Positions 2,392 to 37,235 of a DNA stretch of 60,940 bases are shown piece after piece. A program made the translations under genes and the position numbers. This stretch comes from a bacterium (GTDB taxonomy: Bacteria; Patescibacteriota; 4484-211; GCA-002791395), in the NCBI GenBank assembly GCA_027002475.1, contig JALWZS010000023.1, positions 1 through 60,940 on the forward strand, written 5' to 3'. Under the pieces are notes generated by a model, which was given only the letters and a program-made list of their open reading frames with translations, was not told where the DNA came from and made no database searches. Within the stretch, counting starts at the first letter, position 1, and every line of letters starts with the position of its first letter.

Positions 2392-5300
2392 TTAATTAAT
2401 AATAAACCAATCTATATTAAGTTTGCTATCCATAGGTTTTTCTATAGTTATTGTAAACGATTCCCCTATTTTGCGTGATGTAACAGCAGCAGCCACTGGA
2501 ATATTTGGAGTTAAGAATACCTTGCTCGTTCCAGTTATAGCAGAAGTACTAACCACAGCGGAGATCTCACCCGCAGCAATCGTTGCAGTTCCAACAGATT
2601 GGTCACTGGTTACAAACAAGCCTTTTGTTTCAACTTCACTTGCAACAACTTTGTCTGCCTTTACTTCTTTAGCACTAAGCACACCACCAACAAGCGTTAG
2701 GTCGCCGTCCTTGCTCATTACAATCTTTTGTCCTTGGAACGTTAAATCCCCTAAACTTCCAGTAATATCCCCTTCTACACTTAAGTCTCCTACAATCACT
2801 GTATCAGCTAACTTTGTAATACCGGTAGAGGTTAATGAATTAGAGATAGTTAAGCTTGCAACCTCTGAACTTAAGTTAATATCTCCATCTGCACTTCCCA
2901 TCACTACAGGGGGCTCATTACTTCTAACATCAGGTCCAACTATTTGGGCAATATAGTCACTTAACGATACACCTTCAATTAAAAGCGAATTCACTGACAA
3001 GTTATCTATCTGAGCTTCTCTTGCTTCTAGAGTATTCGCGATTATGTCTTCTGCTTTGAGTTCTAGATAAATCGCCTTTCCGGTTGAACGATCTACTAAT
3101 ACACCATCATCACTAACGGTAATTGTTGGGTCTTGCCATGAAAGATTTACAAACGCTAGGATCTTACCAACTACCACGTAACCATCTTGTGCGACTCCAG
3201 CTTTTTCAATCTCAGTTTTCACACTATCAGTAAACGAATTAACTGGCACTTTAAAGCACGGTCTGCTAGAGTTGTCTCCATCATCTTCTGGCCATACAAT
3301 CGCCTCCATATAGGCTACTGGGGTACATGAATCAAGGGTATAATCGTCGGTAGTTTCTAGTGCTTTAGCCACCGCATATCCAGGTTGAGTTGCTTTAATT
3401 GCTATACCTTTAATCATGCTTGTAGTTATGATGTCTCCTACCTTTATAGAGTCAGGGGTAACAATCACCTTAACTGGTACTCGACCATTAAGGGCTAATG
3501 GGAGTTGCCCATCAGATCCTCCTACTGACAGAACTTGAGCAGGATTAGTTGAGATTATTCCCAAAGCCCTACTTGAATATGGTTTATCACTTTTAACAAG
3601 CACATAGTCAGGTTTATCGTCCCAAGGCTTTGCCTCTCTAGCTTTAACTATGTCAACAACATCACCTGGTTCTAAAAATGTTCCTGGGAAGTTCTCTGCA
3701 ATGTCCACTCCATCGTTTACTGAATCTTGAGTGGTTGGAACAGCAGGTTGTACCTCAATTGAGTCTGCATTAGGTTTTAGCATTAGCTTTCTCCATGTGG
3801 TTTGTAATGGCAACCTTATTGGCTTACCTGTATTTGGACTAATTGGTGGGGTTACATCTGTTGGATCGACTTGCATAAAGTTTTGGATGTATTCAAGGAG
3901 TGATAGCCCTTTAGCTTGGGCTTGTTGTTTTAGCTCATTAATATTTGAAGCATCGATTAAGTCTATCTCTACATTCGCAGGTAACTCCTTACCTATGTAG
4001 TTAAAGAATGGATGTGGCATTCTCTTTGGATCGCCACCATTATTATCCCATGGAGGATCTTCAGCTTGGTACGAGGCTAGTATCTTGTTAGTATCCTTGT
4101 CTCTTAGGACATATATAAAGTGTGGCATTAAGTAACCATCTATAAAGTATGGTGGTGATGCTTGGATATAACGTTGTTGTAGATACGCAGTACAGGTATT
4201 AATGCTATCGATCACAGCGGTGGTAGCATATGTTGTACCTGTACCAACAGCGCCATTGTTAGCAGAGTATACAAGTTTCACCTGGGCTGATGTACAAGTA
4301 GCACTGACCTTAGACTGAGGGTAAAACCCATATTCCCCACCCGGGAGAGTTAACGCCGTGCCAACAATGTTGCTACTAACCTCCCCAATTGTGGTCTTTA
4401 GCTCGCCTTGCCCTATTGCACTGTTAGCAATATTTCCCTGCTCTAAACAGTCCGTACAACTAAAGTCAGTTGCTGTTACTGTACCGTTCACATCAAGAGC
4501 ACTAGATGGAGAAGTTGTACCGACTCCAATACTTCCATTATCTAGATACAGATAACTTGCGCCAGAATACCCTGCAATTTTCAGTGGGTTATTATTAGCT
4601 GAGTATATTTGTGTATAGCTCTCATCGCCAGCTGTACCATTACCAATATACCCAATCGTTAGATCGGACTCACCGTTGGTTTCGTCATTTGACATTGCAA
4701 TCCAACGGTAAGCTGTGCCAGCTGTGCTGCCGCGATCTTGGTTTAAGGTTATCGTCCCCAAATAGGCAGCAGTTGTAACATTACTAATATCCCCAACAAA
4801 TAATTCTTGACCATCACTAACATCTAAGAATATATCGTCACTTGTATCTATTACGATGTCCCCACTAGAGTTAGTTATTTCAGCGGTCCCGCCAAGCGTG
4901 AGTAAAGAAGTTGTCGTAGTAGTTCCAATACCCACATAACCCGTGCTTTTATCTATAAACAAGTCATCTGTATTAAATGCTAATCCTGACTCGTTGTAAG
5001 TTATTCCTCCTATTGAGCTCCCTGCTGGATTTTGGAATTGTGCTAAGTCCCCACTCGGTGCTGTTGCTGTAAATGTCCATGCATCTGCTAACGTGTGACC
5101 TGTTGTTGCACCAAACGTTATTGTTACTCCATGATTTAACGTCTGGGCACTCCCTGTTATTGCTACTCCTGTTGCGTCCCATGTAGTCCCACCGTCATCA
5201 CTCCACTTAAATGTATCTGGGGTACCTGTTGCATCTATCTCTACCTTGTAATTTAGAGTACTTGTACCTGTAAATGTTCCACCACTTGTCGCATCATTAA

Positions 5301-13420: not shown

Positions 13421-13876
13421 CGCATATCAATCGTCATTGCTACTTCTCCGTCATTACGAAGGAGCGAAGCGACTGAAGTAATCTCAAGGCAGTGGGATTG
13501 CTTGGCTAACACTCGCAATGACAATATAACACTCGCGATGACTATTAACCCGTCATTGCGAGCCGAATGCGTGGCAATCTATACATCGGGGAGATCGCCG
13601 CGTCGCGCTGCATGGAATGAGACTGCCGCGGTCGATCCGGCTCCCTCGCAGTGACGAGAGCGCGTCATTGCGATTCCGATGCATATCGGGAGAAGCAATC
13701 CAATCGCCGCGTCGAAAAGCTGCGCTTTCTTCCTCGCGATGACAGGAAGAATGAGATTGCCGCAGTGAATCACTGCGTGATTACTTCGCAATGACACATT
13801 GACCGTTATAGCTACCCTCCCGTCATTACGAAAGAGCGAAGCAACTGAAATAATCTATACATCGACAGCAACGCCG
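13421..13876. repeat. hairpin-repeat array R1 (GTCATTGCGAG/CTCGCAATGAC family)
   Basis: About 10 core copies in both orientations, with inner arms GGCAATCT / AGATTGCC and a CGCAGTGAATCACTGCG palindrome. Confidence 0.85.
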
Positions 13877-13906
13877 ATGGTAAAATACACATGTACTGCA
13901 TTCTCG

Positions 13907-14191
13907 ATGAAGCGAAAGGGGTATATCTACATCCTAACCAATAAGTATAATCATGTTTTGTATGTAGGGGTTACAAGCAACTTAGTAAGACGTATTAACG
14001 AACACAAATTGAGAGTAGGAAGTAAATTTACCAGTAAGTACAAGATCGATAAGCTTGTATATTATGAAACTTTTGACGATATCGAAGAAGCTATTGCTAG
14101 AGAAAAGCAAATTAAATCAGGATCCAGAGCTAGAAAGATTAAATTAGTAGAATCAATTAATCCTCAATGGAAAGAGCTAGAGCCAGTTTAA
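13907..14191 (+). CDS. small stand-alone GIY-YIG (URI-domain) nuclease family protein, 94 aa
   Basis: MKRKGYIYILTNKYNHVLYVGVTSNLVRRINEHK...YYETFDDIEEAIAREKQIK matches the GIY...YVG...R..EH...E pattern of the GIY-YIG fold. The upstream part of ORF 13799.. is repeat sequence. Confidence 0.85.
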   Translation: MKRKGYIYILTNKYNHVLYVGVTSNLVRRINEHKLRVGSKFTSKYKIDKLVYYETFDDIEEAIAREKQIKSGSRARKIKLVESINPQWKELEPV

Positions 14192-14204
14192 GAAATACAA
14201 CTAC

Positions 14205-14725
14205 AGGAAATTGCCGCAGTAAATTACTACGTGATCACTTCGCAATGACACATTGACTGCCATTGCGGGCGCAGTGGAGAAACATGGTTTCTCCCGTAAG
14301 CATGCGAAGTATGCGTCCATTGCGAGCGCTAGCGTGGCAATCTCCAATGTATAGATTGCTTCGTCGTAAATCTTTGATTTACTCCTCGCAATGACGGCTT
14401 GGTGTATTATCGTGATTTCTCGTCATTACGAAGGAGTGCAACCACTGAGGCAATCTCCTGTAAGCATACGAAGCAATATCATGTAGATAGACTGCCGCGC
14501 CTTCGGCTCGCAGTGACGGAAAGGGAAGTGCGCGAGGTTCGTCACTGCGAGCCCGCAACAAGCGGGAGAAGCAGTCTTAACTAACGAGATTACTGCGCAA
14601 TTTGCTACGGCAAATTACTCGTAATGACAAGAAAAATGCAATGCTATTTCACTTGCAGTGACGCTAAGCGTCAGATCGCCGCGCCACTTTGTGGCTCGCG
14701 GTGACGGGAAGAGTAAAACTACCGC
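14205..14725. repeat. hairpin-repeat array R2
   Basis: About 10 core copies plus the double-hairpin module GGAGAAAC-N4-GTTTCTCC-CGTAAGCATGCG..TATGCGTCC. Confidence 0.85.
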
Positions 14726-14734
14726 AGGTGCATG

Positions 14735-14762
14735 TTGACAACTGCCACACCTATTATATACT
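14735..14762 (+). promoter_or_regulatory. sigma70-like promoter for relBE (TTGACA, 16 nt, TATACT)
   Basis: TTGACA at 14735-14740 and TATACT at 14757-14762. ATG follows 11 nt later at 14774. Confidence 0.5.
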
Positions 14763-14773
14763 TTATATACACC

Positions 14774-15046
14774 ATGAAGACGACGGTAATAAACATCAAA
14801 ACAACAAACGAAGTCAAAACCCAAGCACAAGAGATAGCCAAAGAGTTAGGAATTAGCCTTAGTTCACTCATCAATGCTTACTTAAAGCAACTTACTCGCA
14901 CAAAACGAGTTGTATTTGATCTTAATCCTTACCCAAACGAACAAACAAGACAGTACTTAAATAATGTACATAATACCGATACGTCACCGACGTTTAACTC
15001 TATAGATGCAGCTAAACAATGGCTGGAAGAACAAACTAAAAAGTAA
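14774..15046 (+). CDS. relB: type II antitoxin, RelB/DinJ family (ribbon-helix-helix)
   Basis: MKTTVINIKTTNEVKTQAQEIAKELGISLSSLINAYLKQL is a typical RHH antitoxin N-terminus. It lies 20 nt upstream of the RelE-like gene. Confidence 0.8.
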   Translation: MKTTVINIKTTNEVKTQAQEIAKELGISLSSLINAYLKQLTRTKRVVFDLNPYPNEQTRQYLNNVHNTDTSPTFNSIDAAKQWLEEQTKK

Positions 15047-15066
15047 CCGCAACTTTAAACAATCAA

Positions 15067-15345
15067 ATGAGTACGCATATCCGATTTAGCAAAAAGTTCG
15101 TGAAGGGTTTCAAGAAACTCAACCGCAAAACACAAAAACGTTTTTACGATAGGCTTAAAATCTTTGAAGAAAACCCTTATCACCCAACGCTTCGAAACCA
15201 CCAGCTAGCTGGAGAGTACTCCCAGTTTAGAAGCATCAACATAACTGGCGATATTCGTGCAATATATCACGTTGTCAGGCAAGAGGAGAAAGTGCAAGTC
15301 ATACAGTTTGATTTAATCGGTAGCCACAGTGAACTGTACGAATGA
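15067..15345 (+). CDS. relE: type II toxin, RelE/StbE-type mRNA interferase family
   Basis: 92 aa with ...NPYHPTLRNHQLAGEYSQFRSINITGDIRAIYHV...IGSHSELY, the RelE/ParE-superfamily pattern. Confidence 0.8.
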   Translation: MSTHIRFSKKFVKGFKKLNRKTQKRFYDRLKIFEENPYHPTLRNHQLAGEYSQFRSINITGDIRAIYHVVRQEEKVQVIQFDLIGSHSELYE

Positions 15346-15349
15346 CAAC

Positions 15350-15670
15350 ACGGGAAGTTAGATTGCTTCGTTGAATCACTCAAAAGAGTTTCTCGTCACT
15401 GCGACTTGGTGCCAACCAACACGGCAGTCTATCTATATGAGATTGCTTCGCCTTCGTCTCGCAATGACGATCAACGTGTCATTACGAAGGAGCGAAGCGA
15501 CTGAAGTAATCTCAAGGCAGTGGGATTGCTTCGCTGCCGCTCGCAATGACGCGCTCTCGTCACTGCGAGGGAGCCGGAACGACCGTGGCAGTCTAGAGCG
15601 ATGGATTGCTCCGCGTACTTGAGATTGCCGCAGTCATTGCACTCCTTCGCAATGACAAAACAAATCAAGC
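15350..15670. repeat. hairpin-repeat array R3
   Basis: About 7 core copies, including the compact hairpin GTCATTGC-actccttc-GCAATGAC. Confidence 0.85.
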
Positions 15671-15674
15671 GACC

Positions 15675-16664
15675 TTACTTTTTCGCTTTCTTGGTGTGGC
15701 TTTTTACTACAGCTTTTGCGTAAAGCTTGAGGAAGATAACTATTGCCAAGATAAATCCAATTACAACTCCAAGAACGGTTAGTATAAATGGAATTGGTAT
15801 CAGCCAAAATTCTACAGTCCCCATTGCAACGGTAGTTGATGGCTCACCGTAAACTAGTGTTCCTTTTGCAGAGTACTTCCCTATTCGTGGTACAAATCCA
15901 AGCCAAGGTTTTGGGTCCCATGTTTCTTTAAATTTTCTAACACTGTTTGGAAGCACATTAGCAAACTTTTTGTTTATTTGAATTACCTCTTCTTTACCAC
16001 CTGCAGAGTTATAAATTTCTATAAGACCGGACGGCTTTATATGGGTATTTCCAGTGTTTTCAAATCTTACAAAAAAGTTAACTGGTGGATATTGATAAAA
16101 AAGCTTATCAGTTTCAAACGATAAAACCTGCCCCTCCTGCGTTGTGTCGCCAGCAACATTAATTAAAGCCAAAATTGTAACCTCATACTGAGCACCAACC
16201 GCATTCCCACCTTCCGGAGCACCGATCTTTTCTTTCACAACTATAGCCCCATGATGGCTACCCGGCTGAGCGTCCTCAGGGACACTTATCCTTACAGGCA
16301 CCACTTTCCGTTCGCCTGGCTTTAGGTCTATTGAATCTGATGGAAATATAATCCAGTCAGACAAACTACCTTCCACATTTCCGCCTACAAAAACTGCTTG
16401 TCCACTTTCATCTTCTGCTGGCTTAAAGTCATCTGTATACAAGACAACCGTCTTTTCATAGTCGTCTTGGTTTGTAATCTTCACATCAACGGTTAAAGAC
16501 TCGCCTGGCAGAATGTCGGATTGATCGATAAGGGCTGGCGATACCATGATGCCACCGCTAGAGTTTTGATTATTCTCCTGTGCAACAACGCGTACCGCAA
16601 CAAACGCGGCAACAGATAAAAATGCAACGAGAGTTAAGAGATATGAGCGATAATTTATTTTCAT
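15675..16664 (-). CDS. cell-surface protein with DUF916/DUF3324-like architecture, paralog 2
   Basis: ATG at 16664 gives MKINYRSYLLTLVAFLSVAAFVAVRVVAQ. Motifs include WIIFPSDSIDLKPGERKVVPVRISVPEDAQPGSHHGAIVV and IGKYSAKGTLVYG. The C-terminal helix is followed by KSHTKKAKK. The ORF part upstream of 16664 is repeat sequence. Confidence 0.7.
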   Translation of the reverse strand: MKINYRSYLLTLVAFLSVAAFVAVRVVAQENNQNSSGGIMVSPALIDQSDILPGESLTVDVKITNQDDYEKTVVLYTDDFKPAEDESGQAVFVGGNVEGSLSDWIIFPSDSIDLKPGERKVVPVRISVPEDAQPGSHHGAIVVKEKIGAPEGGNAVGAQYEVTILALINVAGDTTQEGQVLSFETDKLFYQYPPVNFFVRFENTGNTHIKPSGLIEIYNSAGGKEEVIQINKKFANVLPNSVRKFKETWDPKPWLGFVPRIGKYSAKGTLVYGEPSTTVAMGTVEFWLIPIPFILTVLGVVIGFILAIVIFLKLYAKAVVKSHTKKAKK

Positions 16665-16673
16665 GCAACAAGT

Positions 16674-16702
16674 ATTGTGCCAGCAAATCAGATGTAGGTC
16701 AA
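16674..16702 (-). promoter_or_regulatory. promoter candidate TTGACC, 17 nt, CACAAT, 9 nt upstream of ATG 16664
   Basis: Read on the minus strand. There is no SD sequence in the gap. Confidence 0.4.
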
Positions 16703-16734
16703 CAGGTATGAAATCGGTTGAGACTGTGACGTAC

Positions 16735-17140
16735 GCTTGTAGCAGATTGCTTCGCCTTCGGCTCGCAATGGACGCATACTGCGTATGCTTACAGGAGAAA
16801 CGCAGTTTCTCCATCATGCCATGAGCGATGACGAGGAGACGAAGGCGTTCAATTTGTCATCGCGAGTCTTTTCATGTCATTACGAGACCGCCATACGCGG
16901 GAGAAGTAATCTCATCGATTGAGACTGCGTCGTCACTACGTTCCTCGCAGTGACGGGAAAGCAGCGGAGAAGTGCAACTTCTCCTATAAGCACGCGAAGC
17001 GCGCGTCCATTGCGAGAAGGAAATCAAAGATTTTCGACGAAGCAATCTCTACTGCTATTAGATCGCCACGTCGCTACGTTCCTCGCGATGACAGTAGTAG
17101 CGTCGTCATTGCGAGCGCTAGCGTGGCAATCCCATCTGAT
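16735..17140. repeat. hairpin-repeat array R4
   Basis: About 9-10 core copies, the module CGTCACTACGTTCCTCGCAGTGACG, and two GGAGAA..TTCTCC double-hairpin modules. Confidence 0.85.
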
Positions 17141-17145
17141 ACCCC

Positions 17146-17176
17146 TCATAGAAAAGGCCCCCTTGCGGGGGCCTTT
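17146..17176 (-). terminator. rho-independent terminator after the 387-aa secreted protein gene
   Basis: Perfect 10-bp GC-rich stem AAAGGCCCCC-ttgc-GGGGGCCTTT (17153-17176). On the minus strand it is followed by TTTTCTAT. Confidence 0.7.
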
Positions 17177-17315
17177 CCCAAAAGTGCTATCTCTGACAGT
17201 CATACACGCTTATTATCGCCTGTATGCCGTGGTCCAGGATCAATCACGCCTTATTATTTGGGCCTAACTGTCCTACAACACTCCGTAGCTTTACGCGTAG
17301 GAGTGAACGCTTACA

Positions 17316-18479
17316 TTAGAATGTAGCGGTTGCACGGAATGTCAGTGTGTTTGTATAGTCGCTAGCAGCAGCGGTTGACCGACCTGCAACTGCTCGTGCC
17401 TCGATCTGTGCACTTCCTGAAACTACTGGACCACTTGTTGTGTAAATGTTCGCAGTAGTGCCAAATGAAGTTTGTACAGGAGACGCATCAGTTGCTGCAG
17501 CACTATCGTATGAAGCATCAGGAGTCATGGTAGTTCCACTAGCATCTTCACTTTCAGATACTGCAACTATTCCCCACGATCCATCCACGCTATTAGTGCT
17601 TAATGTTGCAAGGTCAGAGCTGACAAATGGTATGTTATCACTAGCTGCTGTACTGCTAAGACCATTGGAGTCATCAGTTATAACCTGAACAACTGTACCG
17701 TTAGCGGCGTTGCTGTCGAGGTCTAACCAGATTTCGGATACTCCACTCGTACTACCTGTAGTAACAGTATCGTATGTTAACTCACCTAGGTCTAATGTAT
17801 ATGGCGCGTCACTATCACCACCACCATCAGCAATATCTAAGTCGAATGTGATGTATGTATCAACTGAAGCGGTAACAGTTACCTGATCACTATCCATGAT
17901 CGGCACATCTACTGCAAATGCATCATCACCAAATGTTCCTGACAGGTTTATCTCTTGCGAACCTGCAGTCCCTGGGTTGGTTAAACGATCTGTACCACCT
18001 GATGCCGTACTCCCTACTTCAATAGTGATAGTAGCAGCCGCGGATGATGCAGTGTAAGAACTACAAGCCTCAAAGGTCAAGGTTCCTGCAGCATCGGCAA
18101 CAGTAACTGCAATATTATCAGCGCCCGCCGTACAGGTAGGCGAAGCCCCGACATCTACAATCGTCCGTTCAGTGCCGTCATTAAAATCGATGTCAGCAAC
18201 AGCCAAATTAGTACCATCTAAGGTAAAACCTGAGCTGTCCTCGTTAAAATCAACAATGATTGTTTCACCTGCAGCAAAAGTTTCTGATGCTGACAGTTGA
18301 AAGGTAATTGTATGACCAGCGGCCGTAGAAATTGCATGACGAGTAAGCTCATCCTTAGCACTCTGAACTGTAGTAGCGTAAACCTTCTGAGATCCAGAAA
18401 GCCCTACAAACAGTTGGAATGCCATTAGTGCAATACCTACACTTGCGATAGCACGACTTTTTCGTACTTTTTTGAGCAT
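17316..18479 (-). CDS. secreted Thr/Ser/Ala/Asp-rich beta protein with a WxL-like C-terminus (387 aa)
   Basis: ATG at 18479 is preceded by AAGGAGGTGA. The signal peptide is MLKKVRKSRAIASVGIALMAFQLFVGLSGSQKVYA. Internal motif VDTYITFDLD...YTLDLGELTYD. It ends SDYTNTLTFRATATF. Confidence 0.75.
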   Translation of the reverse strand: MLKKVRKSRAIASVGIALMAFQLFVGLSGSQKVYATTVQSAKDELTRHAISTAAGHTITFQLSASETFAAGETIIVDFNEDSSGFTLDGTNLAVADIDFNDGTERTIVDVGASPTCTAGADNIAVTVADAAGTLTFEACSSYTASSAAATITIEVGSTASGGTDRLTNPGTAGSQEINLSGTFGDDAFAVDVPIMDSDQVTVTASVDTYITFDLDIADGGGDSDAPYTLDLGELTYDTVTTGSTSGVSEIWLDLDSNAANGTVVQVITDDSNGLSSTAASDNIPFVSSDLATLSTNSVDGSWGIVAVSESEDASGTTMTPDASYDSAAATDASPVQTSFGTTANIYTTSGPVVSGSAQIEARAVAGRSTAAASDYTNTLTFRATATF

Positions 18480-18544
18480 ATTTTGCTCACCTCCTTTCTC
18501 GTTTTTAATGTACGTAAACAAAACTCATATTATTCAATGGTATA

Positions 18545-18835
18545 TAAGATTGCGTCGCTGGCGCTCGCAATGACAGAAAAAAAGCTCGTAATGGACGTAC
18601 GCTCCGCGTACTTAAGATTGCCGCAGTCATTGCACTCCTTCGCAATGACAAAAACCCGTCACTGCGAGGAACGTAGTGACGCGGCAGTCTGACGCCTAGC
18701 GTCATTGCGAGGTAATCACGCAGTGATTTAACGAAGCAATCTAATTTGGTAGAGATTGCCACGCCTTCGGCTCGCAATGACGACAATCCGTCACAGAGAT
18801 TACTTCTCCCGCCCATGGTGGGATCGTAATGGCGA
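18545..18835. repeat. hairpin-repeat array R5
   Basis: About 10 core copies, including CGTCACTGCGAGGAACGTAGTGACG. Confidence 0.85.
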
Positions 18836-19139
18836 AGCCTAGCCATAGCAGAAGTAAACATAACCCTTAAAGGCTCTAAAGAAGTTTGGGACAGTTGTGA
18901 AACTTCTTTTTTCATAAGTACTACTCTATCCTCTACAAAATCATGGTCGATGTCAATACCAAACGTGCCAGAAAACGACACGATACTATCGGGCACGCAC
19001 CCTCAAGACTATGGGGCTAGGGGCTTTAGGGCGGTTAAGTTTACGAGTAGCGCGGCACTAGTTTAGATTGATAGCATCGAACAAAACAGGACAGTACAAA
19101 TAAACCACAAAGCACAAAATCCAAACAGCACAAACAAAC

Positions 19140-19628
19140 CCGTCACCGCGAAGCAGTCTCGCCTATTGCTAGATTGCCACGCCACTTCGTGGCTCGCAAT
19201 GACGAAACCACCACCGCCACAAGGCGTCACCTGGTGACTCGCCGCGGAGACTCCGACGCATAGCGTCACTGCGATCCCGCCTTGGGCGGGAGCAGCAGTC
19301 TCCTGAGTACGGAGATTGCTTCGCGTGATTGAGATTGCCGCAGTCGTTGCACTCCTTCGCAATGACGCGAGGAATCGCGATAATACACCAAGTCGTCATT
19401 GCGAGCGCTAGCGAAGCAATCCCACTACCCTGAGATTACTTCAGTCGCTTCGCTCCTTCGTAATGACGGGAGAAGTATAGCAATGGACGCAGGCAAAGCC
19501 TGCTTACAGGAGACACTGCGTTTCTCCACCTCCCCCAACCGTCATCGCGAGCCACAACGTGGTGCGGCGATCTACAACAACGAGATTGCCACGGAATTTA
19601 TATGATAAATTCCTCGCAATGACAAGGG
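19140..19628. repeat. hairpin-repeat array R6
   Basis: About 10 core copies plus one GGAGACAC..GTTTCTCC module. It lies directly downstream of the ABC permease gene. Confidence 0.85.
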
Positions 19629-19632
19629 ATTC

Positions 19633-29269: not shown

Positions 29270-29828
29270 CGATGCGGCGATCCCATCGATTGAGACTGCC
29301 ACGTTGGTTAATACCAACTCGCAGTGACAGAGAACTCAATACCACCGCGAATGTAAAAGTCAAAGCCCAAGAAACCAAACCATAAACAGAACAAACAAAT
29401 TAAACTTTTTAATTACAAAACTAGCGCTTAAGACATGAATCGCATCTTAGGTGTGTTTTTCTACCGACCAGACCTGTCACTGCGAGGAACGTAGTGACGA
29501 AGCAGTCCCAAACGATAGATTACTTCGCTATCGCTCGTAATGGACGCATACTTTGTATGCTTACAGGAGAAACGTAGTTTCTCCACCAACCACTCATCAT
29601 CGTGAGCCACAAAGTGACGCGGCAGTCTGACAGTTCGTCATTACGAAGGAATGAAATGACTGAAGTAATCCCAAACGATGGAGATTGCCACGCCTTCGGC
29701 TCGCAATGCCAGGAAAACCGAGACCGCTCATAATGACAAATCGGTCGATGGAGACTGCCACGAAATTTACTTGATAAATTCCGAGCAATGACGCGGGAAA
29801 TCGAAAATCCTCGTAATGGCGGGGAATC
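29270..29828. repeat. hairpin-repeat array R7
   Basis: About 9 core copies plus the double-hairpin module. It contains the left copy of the 105-nt inverted repeat. Confidence 0.85.
29382..29486 (+). repeat. left copy of a 105-nt inverted repeat (partner 36975-37079)
   Basis: 103/105 identical to the reverse complement of 36975-37079 by manual alignment. Weaker similarity extends to about 29355-29542. Confidence 0.85.
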
Positions 29829-36694: not shown

Positions 36695-37235
36695 CCTTTC
36701 GCCGCCATTACGAGAGCCTTCGGTCTCACGCGTCATTGTTCAGAATCTATCAAGTAAATTCCGTGGCAATCTAATATGCTGGAGCCTGCCGCAGTAAATC
36801 ACTGCGTGATTACTTCGCAGTGACGAACTGTCAGACTGCCGCGTCACTACGTTCCTCGCAGTGACGGGTGCTAAGTACGCGAAGCATATGTCCATTGCAA
36901 GCGGTCTTGGTTTTCCCGTCATTGCGAGCGATAGCGAAGTAATCTTCTTTTGGGACTGCTTCGCCGCTAGGCTTCTCGCAGTGACAGGTCTGGTCGGTAG
37001 AAAAACACACCTAAGATGCGATTCATGTCTTAAGCGCTAGTCTTGTAATTAAAAAGTTTAATTTGTTTGTTATGTTTATGATTTGATTGTTTGGACTTTG
37101 ACTTTCGTCATTGCGAGCCAAAGGCGTGGCAATCTCCATCGTTTGGGATTACCGCGTCACTTTGTGGCTCACGATTGTAAAAGTCAAGTCATCACACCGA
37201 TTTTCTCCTCGTAATAACGAATGGATTATTTAAAA
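36695..37235. repeat. hairpin-repeat array R8
   Basis: About 11 core copies. It contains the right copy of the 105-nt inverted repeat and fills the convergent gap between the 34016..36658 and 37238..38836 genes. Confidence 0.85.
36975..37079 (-). repeat. right copy of the 105-nt inverted repeat (partner 29382-29486)
   Basis: See 29382-29486. Weaker similarity extends to about 36918-37106. Confidence 0.85.

Follow-up and report, generated by a model that had tools for sequence, protein, structure and literature searches.

The 60,940-nucleotide stretch of bacterial DNA analyzed here (contig JALWZS010000023.1, hereafter the window) carries a gene for a 94-amino acid (aa) GIY-YIG nuclease embedded in arrays of hairpin-forming repeats. 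Our analysis indicates that this gene very probably encodes an Ssn-family enzyme, namely a minimal, single-domain GIY-YIG nuclease that cuts single-stranded DNA (ssDNA) site-specifically, and that the arrays are made up of hairpin repeats cognate to it, which represent a variant of the published Ssn-related motifs (SRM) within the superfamily of CGTC-tagged REPs. The original prediction had proposed, from two direct 48-nt repeats on either side of the gene, a nuclease-repeat partnership resembling that of REP hairpins with RAYT transposases. The partnership is supported by the repeats that flank the gene at homologous loci and by published biochemistry, whereas the 48-nt direct repeat is not diagnostic of it, as the layout that recurs is inverted. 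Both the partnership and the REP/RAYT analogy were already published in 2025 (Chenal et al. 2025, Nat Commun 16:2388, PMC11893778), and the window is a new example in a Patescibacteria-like genome. New here are repeats that are missed by the published pattern and identical modules at different sites in two relatives. The evidence lies in the family membership of the protein, the architecture of the repeat modules and the covariation of their stems, a layout found across phyla, and the turnover of modules between relatives.

Assignment of the nuclease to the Ssn family

The open reading frame (ORF) of the nuclease is intact, lies between the two 48-nt copies and is single-copy in the window, as judged by tblastn. 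Its product matches the Pfam GIY-YIG domain (PF01541, E=6.3e-18) over residues 4-78. SsnA of Neisseria meningitidis is a single-domain GIY-YIG protein of the same length, 94 aa, classified as CDD cd10448 (PMC11893778). With the N. gonorrhoeae orthologue of SsnA, the window protein shares 45% identity in a gapless pairwise alignment over 85 aa (E=2e-26); this orthologue also has 94 aa, bears Y6, Y17 and E64 as published and has copies of the Neisseria hairpin repeat, NTS, on both sides of its gene. In a tblastn search of PLSDB, the window protein matched both of the N. gonorrhoeae chromosomes that are filed there among plasmid records, the first with E=7e-17, which lies well below the threshold for Ssn homology used in PMC11893778 (tblastn E < 1e-10). 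The protein likewise has the size and make-up given for the family, i.e. about 90-100 aa with a single GIY-YIG domain and without an extra DNA-binding domain. Its residues Y8, Y19 and E66 align with Y6, Y17 and E64 of SsnA, where the substitutions Y6A, Y17A and E64A abolish cleavage (PMC11893778). These catalytic residues are invariant across 25 homologues, and alignment A1 of homologues shows Y8, Y19, R29, H33 and E66 to be invariant. By sequence comparison, the window protein is a member of the Ssn family.

The AlphaFold2 model of the protein (pLDDT 92.6) presents a compact beta-beta-alpha-alpha-beta-alpha-alpha fold, i.e. the bare GIY-YIG core with no extra domain. The best structural matches of the model are UPF0213 protein BH0048 (1ZG2), Slx1, At-HIGLE and the N-terminal domain of UvrC, and no Ssn structure was found in the PDB by sequence and structure comparison. 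Other assignments were considered and rejected. Membership in YhbQ/UPF0213 (COG2827) was dropped, as the UPF0213 structures match weakly (E=5e-5 and 3e-3) and the published family is cd10448. The catalytic core is shared with the homing endonucleases I-TevI and Seg, as well as with Slx1 and the YhbQ-like UPF0213 proteins, but the window protein does not have the DNA-binding extension of the homing endonucleases; with 94 aa and no C-terminal DNA-binding domain, and with 22.8 bits against NCBIfam model TIGR01453 (cutoff 56.05), it was not assigned to the GIY-YIG homing endonucleases. Nor is it an enzyme of the REP/RAYT type (HUH/Y1, IS200/IS605), being a GIY-YIG protein.

The start of the gene is likely the ATG at 13907. 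A longer ORF opens with a TTG at 13799, and this 36-codon upstream extension traverses a repeat module. In the syntenic relative L001, described below, the gene as called (104 aa) also begins upstream of the conserved ATG.

Repeat modules in the window

The arrays were recognized by a 10-nt core, GTCATTGCGA, which, together with its reverse complement, occurs 50 times in the window when at most one mismatch is allowed, as compared with 0-8 times in shuffled sequences. The occurrences are distributed almost equally between the orientations (24 forward and 26 reverse) and group into eight intergenic clusters. The module is composed of a (C/T)GTC tag, a 5-nt stem, GAG, a variable segment that is usually a hairpin, GAA or a similar triplet, the complement of the stem and a C, and spans 27-42 nt. 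Modules with a perfect stem number 38 (0-2 in shuffles). Within this set, the base preceding GTC is C in 25 modules and T in 13, the stem starts with AT in 26 and with AC in 12, and the tail is TCA in 11 and CCA in 7 (18 of 38). Four stem classes, distinguished by compensatory transitions, were seen: ATTGC/GCAAT (18 modules), ACTGC/GCAGT (12), ATTAC/GTAAT (6) and ATCGC/GCGAT (2). Pairing was also checked without being presupposed, by locating the outer boxes alone and then reading the first inner box of any class; the class of the outer box equaled that of the inner box in 36 of 48 cases. Intact modules are predicted to fold as ssDNA into two-tier hairpins of about -9.5 to -9.9 kcal/mol (z of about -2.3 to -2.6).

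When compared with the NTS of Neisseria (CGTCATTCCCGCGMAVGCGGGAATCYRG) and with the SRM in general, the window modules have in common the (C/T)GTC tag 5' of the stem, a stem that starts with A (position W of the SRM) and the C 3' of the stem. They differ in stem sequence, which is ATTGC/GCAAT or one of three co-varying variants in the window and ATTCCCGC/GCGGGAAT in Neisseria, and in loop length, as a second, variable hairpin, up to about 25 nt long, takes the place of the loop in the window. A second hairpin in place of the SRM loop, which has at most 5 nt, is compatible with the published dispensability of that loop, since it can be altered or extended with SsnA cleavage being kept (PMC11893778). 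Judged by this architecture, the window repeats are a variant class of Ssn motifs. They also display features of the CGTC-tagged REPs, which were defined earlier and for which a dedicated transposase was reported to be lacking (Di Nocera et al. 2013, PMC3733652). These features are an unpaired CGTC tag, often TGTC, stems that start with AT, a short tail near CCA, and an arrangement in head-to-head pairs and clusters. The stems of CGTC-tagged REPs are, however, 8-9 bp long with loops of 4-5 nt, whereas the window modules have an outer stem of 5 bp, an internal loop and a second variable hairpin, in the order stem, GAG, variable hairpin, GAA.

Modules at the loci of homologues

Homologues of the window protein numbered 3624 at E <= 1e-5. 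We examined the loci of the 80 closest homologues, retrieved with the family alignment of the window protein, of at least 593 that were confirmed; one genome per species was considered, in stretches of 20 kb, and the loci cover more than 12 phyla. The 80 proteins are 49-64% identical to the window protein. Their hosts include Bacteroidota, Cyanobacteria, Chloroflexota, Omnitrophota, Planctomycetota, Atribacterota, Campylobacterota, several proteobacterial classes and others, with the Patescibacteria being represented by Woesebacteria, Komeilibacteria and Saccharibacteria.

In 37 of 77 loci, a forward copy of the exact 10-nt core is found at most 150 nt upstream of the gene, and in 49 of 79 a reverse copy is found at most 150 nt downstream, as compared with a background of 0.13 hits per kb at distances of more than 1 kb from the gene. 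Using a generic detector (GTC, a 5-nt stem starting with A or T, a loop, the complement of the stem and C), a forward module was found within 200 nt upstream in 50 of 77 loci and a reverse module within 200 nt downstream in 58 of 79, where 0.028 would be expected per site from the distal flanks of the same loci; modules are present on both sides, in these orientations, in 43 of 76. The check that the original prediction had called for, namely whether this repeat family also flanks GIY-YIG homologues in other genomes, thus came out in its favor, and with the homologues so flanked, the partnership between nuclease and repeats can be considered real. It should be noted that what recurs is not a direct but an inverted layout, with the gene between a forward module upstream and a reverse module downstream. 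Several of the 20-kb loci contain just two copies of the core, and these are the ones that flank the gene. Simple loci read flank, GTCATTGCGAG, variable hairpin, GAAGCAATCTC, 10-40 nt and gene in their left half, and gene, 10-40 nt, GAGATTGCTTC, variable hairpin, CTCGCAATGAC and flank in their right half. Loci without the exact core have variant cores in the same layout with compensatory stems (GTCATCCTGAG..AGGATC, GTCATTCTGAG..AGAATC, GTCACCCCGAG..GGGGTC and GTCATGCTGA..AGCATC), and the variant core of locus L052, GTCATTCCCGCGCAGGCGGGAATCC, is a textbook Neisseria NTS.

For the Ssn family as published, one or more SRMs occur near 71% of homologues and SRMs stand on both sides of 42%, while 81% of the genomes with more than 200 SRMs encode an Ssn homologue (PMC11893778). 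Although the published pattern fails to detect the repeat class GTCATTGCGAG ... GAAGCAATC, no other class is as common beside the 80 closest homologues, in many phyla; censuses based on that pattern therefore probably undercount Ssn systems. The host lineage, Patescibacteria, receives no mention in the main text of the founding paper (PMC11893778).

A second architecture was observed in five loci, L082 (Agrobacterium), L009 (Maribacter), L017, L051 and L080, in which the gene stands between two complete module pairs. In loci of the L082 type, a reverse module is closest to the gene upstream and a forward module downstream, so that the gene is bracketed by near-identical direct repeats of 70-180 nt.

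Modules next to the gene and comparison with a syntenic relative

The two 48-nt copies, at 13756-13803 and 14210-14257, were found to read exactly as first described, bracketing the gene and differing by four mismatches. Gapless extension of the pair yields 60 nt at 85% identity (13753-13812 and 14207-14266, family D3). The description of each copy as a module of the repeat family also holds, as each consists of a reverse-oriented module of one subfamily together with 8 nt of shared flank. Elsewhere in the window, the left 48-mer has no match at three or fewer mismatches, and none was obtained in 100 shuffles. The left copy, which reads GTCATTGCGAAGTAATCACGCAGTGATTCACTGCGGCAATC on the bottom strand, is predicted to fold as ssDNA into a two-tier hairpin (-9.9 kcal/mol, z = -2.6), and the right copy folds likewise, only more weakly (-5.6 kcal/mol, z = -1.3).

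The left 48-mer was found not to delimit the gene unit on its left but to end a neighboring module, and the gene has a left module of its own at 13822-13855. The whole unit (13822-14249) comprises 428 nt with inverted modules at its ends. The positions of both gene-proximal modules match those of the usual upstream forward and downstream reverse modules at the loci of homologues, and the tagged hairpin repeats on both sides of the gene by which Ssn systems are characterized are thus present in the window, where, as in the published systems, such repeats are also amplified across intergenic regions. The left-end module is decayed, with ATAATC in place of GTAATC as its inner box, and its predicted ssDNA fold is no better than that of shuffles (-1.4 kcal/mol, z = 0). 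In the right-end module, the C after the palindrome has become T.

In the relative L001 (GCA_054010915.1), the gene has the same slot and the same neighbors, encodes a protein of 89% identity and lies on a contig of which the CysRS is 91% identical to the CysRS of the window. The core of the upstream array (13552-13746) is orthologous to L001:9738-9929 at about 93%, with the ends replaced. The gene-proximal modules have been replaced on both sides of the gene. Upstream, the window presents the left 48-mer and an ATTAC-class forward module, as opposed to a single ACTGC-class forward module in L001; downstream, the two sequences diverge after a common inner box. Six modules have the same sequence in the window and in L001, several of them at non-orthologous positions. 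L001 lacks the left 48-mer upstream of the gene, and the 41-nt module that forms the core of this 48-mer (13755-13795) is found in L001 in identical form at the non-orthologous position L001:10742-10782, about 430 nt downstream of the gene. As identical modules have been relocated between the relatives, the arrays themselves are dynamic. The L001 gene is bracketed by other direct repeats, of 70 nt (93% identity), 55 nt and 51 nt (both 100%). Bracketing by direct repeats is a by-product of the alternating arrays, and the specific 48-mers are lineage-specific and are not element boundaries. As the gene unit occupies the same slot in the relative, is single-copy and has decayed flanking modules, the data suggest that the unit in the window is resident rather than recently mobile.

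The nuclease gene had also been described as the only enzyme-like gene within the arrays. This does not hold, as a pair of genes for a RelB antitoxin and a YafQ (ParE-like) toxin (14774-15046 and 15067-15345) likewise lies between arrays. As the pair is missing from the syntenic L001, the arrays also host the insertion or deletion of a toxin-antitoxin cassette.

Proposed mode of action and relation to known systems

SsnA binds the NTS only as ssDNA and cuts a few nt 5' of the repeat, with the complementary strand, duplex DNA and RNA not serving as substrates (PMC11893778). Cutting depends on the three bases before the palindrome and binding depends most on the C after it, while changing the sequence of the palindrome with the hairpin kept abolishes activity. 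Besides SsnA, three homologues were found to bind their own repeats, as ssDNA hairpins, and to cut them, and SsnA of Neisseria lowers transformation by DNA that carries the repeat (PMC11893778). By homology to these tested enzymes, a module in the window would be expected to become single-stranded in the course of replication, DNA uptake, conjugation or repair, and would then fold into the two-tier hairpin. Recognition by the nuclease would involve the YGTC tag on the 5' side, the stem of 5 bp and the C after it. The motif strand would be nicked a few nt 5' of the tag, while the complementary strand, duplex DNA and RNA would be spared. With a forward module to the left of the gene and a reverse module to its right, nicking would be predicted immediately outside the unit, in the top strand on the left and in the bottom strand on the right. 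We infer that nuclease and repeats co-evolve as a unit and that the nuclease may generate or maintain the arrays, cut incoming ssDNA that bears the repeats, as in Neisseria, or both. We further hypothesize that the repeats are amplified by the enzyme.

The likening of the repeat-gene-repeat arrangement to an insertion sequence (IS) and to RAYT/REP/BIME systems was made by the authors of PMC11893778 themselves. The systems of REP or REPIN repeats with RAYT, which is related to IS200/IS605 (PMC3116915, PMC2817692), resemble the one considered here in having a usually single-copy nuclease gene that is flanked by inverted hairpin repeats, repeats that fill intergenic regions in arrays of alternating orientation, like BIMEs, and a hairpin that is recognized in ssDNA. 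They differ in that RAYT is an HUH/Y1 transposase acting through a covalent intermediate, whereas the window enzyme belongs to the GIY-YIG hydrolytic nickases, the two folds being unrelated, and in the tag, which is GTAG in REP/RAYT and CGTC or TGTC in 38 of 38 window modules. Mobilization of the repeats by the enzyme is, moreover, hypothetical for the GIY-YIG system. As compared with the Ssn systems of Neisseria, the window system differs in its Patescibacteria-like host.

Weighing of the alternatives

Our assignment to the Ssn family with cognate repeats meets several findings that weigh against it and should be considered when referring to the results. The published SRM pattern, HGTCWYN(0-2)YYVSBRHN(0-5)WNVSBRGN(0-2)RNCYNB, has 0 matches in the window, though it matches the Neisseria NTS, so that the repeats are placed in the family by their architecture and do not fall under its operational definition. 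Both modules that flank the gene are degenerate, and the right one is without the C that is most important for binding in the published enzyme. Four stem classes coexist with one visible nuclease gene, though the published enzyme reads the stem sequence, which raises the question of how specificity is handled in this genome. Finally, the pattern GTCATTGCGAG-N(3-30)-GAAGCAATC occurs in at least 120 viral contigs (IMG/VR, L084-L203), and no Ssn homologue was found in 120 module-bearing viral stretches (1.07 Mb); modules can thus exist far from a nuclease gene. In the whole collection, 41 viral loci encode an Ssn homologue.

A reading that overlaps with ours, but makes a stronger claim of transposition, is that of an autonomous selfish element, i.e. 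an IS-like unit of about 430 nt in which the modules serve as terminal inverted repeats, with gene-less modules being MITE-like derivatives copied by the nuclease. We consider this possible, if doubtful. It would fit the presence of the same termini (GTCATTGCGAG ... CTCGCAATGAC) around the gene at many of the 80 loci, which come from more than 12 phyla, the 20-kb loci with just the two end modules, the identical modules at non-orthologous sites in the two relatives, and the IS analogy raised in PMC11893778. Long duplications from host coding sequence moreover flank the unit at two loci, whose genomes are unrelated. In L040, 112 nt are duplicated at 100% identity (2247-2358 and 2806-2917), containing the start codon and first 37 codons of pheT, and in L023, 72 nt from the 3' end of an ABC ATPase gene are duplicated at 92% (2815-2886 and 3337-3408). 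These are far too long for ordinary target-site duplications and may represent either the footprint of an insertion or a repair event that rescued a disrupted gene. Against a selfish element speaks the chemistry, as GIY-YIG enzymes are hydrolytic nickases for which, to our knowledge, neither strand transfer nor a covalent intermediate is known. In addition, no short target-site duplication is visible at 20 simple insertions, the apparent residence of the window gene described above does not point to mobility, and modules may equally well be exchanged by recombination within their conserved boxes. It is unlikely, in our estimate, that the unit is a true mobile element absent from the transposon catalogues, a GIY-YIG IS of about 430 nt that spreads with gene-less modules by ssDNA nicking and host repair or recombination. 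If true, this would account for termini that are the same in more than 12 phyla, for the relocation of modules and for the duplications of 72-112 nt of host gene ends, and would identify the missing mobilizing enzyme of the CGTC-tagged REP superfamily. The relocation of modules and the long flank duplications in any case bear on the question of mobility for the whole Ssn family.

The original prediction had also offered the alternative that the nuclease gene may be a mobile cassette that inserts into the repeats, which in this general form may be the case. If the 48-nt direct repeats delimited such a cassette, inserted into a pre-existing repeat, they would represent attachment sites or a target duplication. 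Bracketing direct repeats of 40 nt or more do occur at about 20 of the 80 loci, and three bracketing pairs of 51-70 nt were found in L001, but those at the 80 loci are mostly whole repeat units, and ordinary modules or module pairs are what is expected of a tandem alternating array. The bracketing sequences, furthermore, differ between the syntenic relatives while the gene slot is the same, the left 48-mer of the window lies downstream and not upstream of the gene in L001, and simple loci have inverted ends only. We thus regard the 48-mers as extremely improbable boundaries, and the comparison with L001 led to their rejection in this role. A further possibility is that the arrays are RNA-level elements, such as terminators or mRNA stabilizers, and are close to the nuclease gene incidentally. 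The modules are indeed intergenic hairpins, covariation of their stems would be selected equally in RNA, and REP-type repeats are known to affect mRNA stability (PMC3733652). However, the association of the modules with this one gene family exceeds background about 25-fold in a comparison that spans phyla, the enzymes that were tested recognize the hairpin as DNA and do not bind it as RNA (PMC11893778), and the two orientations are equally frequent, which together make an RNA-level role of this kind most improbable as an explanation.

Genomic context and further observations

The window is chromosomal and encodes CysRS, DnaX, tRNAs and proteases, and the best named homologues of its CysRS are from Patescibacteria (Collierbacteria, Woesebacteria and Beckwithbacteria). 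The positions of the gene, its modules and the arrays are summarized in Table 1.

Table 1 Coordinates of the nuclease gene, the modules next to it and the module arrays in the window.
Feature	Position	Strand	Basis or remark
Upstream array, alternating forward and reverse modules, BIME-like	13421..13906	.	Core hits, stem scan
Intact reverse module of neighboring unit (core of left 48-mer)	13755..13795	-	Perfect ATTGC/GCAAT stem, then C
Left-end module of gene unit, forward, GTCATTACGAAAGAGCGAAGCAACTGAAATAATC	13822..13855	+	51 nt before ATG
ssn-like gene, putative single-domain GIY-YIG nuclease, 94 aa	13907..14191	+	Pfam, SsnA alignment, AlphaFold2
Downstream array, between ssn-like gene and RelB/YafQ pair	14192..14731	.	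Core hits, stem scan
Right-end module of gene unit (core of right 48-mer)	14209..14249	-	17 nt after stop
Array of six perfect modules in strict forward/reverse alternation	15371..15674	.	
Module array	16818..17315	.	
Two module arrays (18548-18781, 19142-19623)	18522..19632	.	Mechanical ORFs here probably repeat-encoded
Module array	29294..29710	.	
Module array	36808..37134	.	

Six of the eight arrays lie within 6 kb (13433-19623), flanked by the genes for a 3289-aa and a 2083-aa protein, and the arrays are concentrated between these genes and those for proteins resembling WxL-interacting proteins. Two proteins encoded in the 6-kb stretch have matches to PF06030 (WxL-interacting, peptidoglycan-binding) that are below threshold (19.8 and 25 bits, with a cutoff of 27.3). 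The large proteins and the WxL-interacting-like neighbors of the arrays are probably surface proteins. Clusters of repeats beside surface-protein genes in Neisseria (PMC11893778) appear to be paralleled by the arrays of the window.

Repeats of this kind break assemblies and create spurious ORFs. Mechanically predicted ORFs of 99-163 aa run through the arrays at 13799-14191, 16919-17326, 16950-17267, 18505-18996 and 19063-19362. The array-crossing ORFs, as well as the upstream extension of the nuclease ORF, are probably repeat-encoded artefacts.

A second composite repeat unit was observed at 14263-14342 of the window and at L001:9699-9768 and L001:10417-10486. It consists of a hairpin, GTGGAGAA..TTCTCC, followed by GCGTCCATTGCGAGC...GCAATC, and its module tag carries an extra C (GTCC, not GTC).

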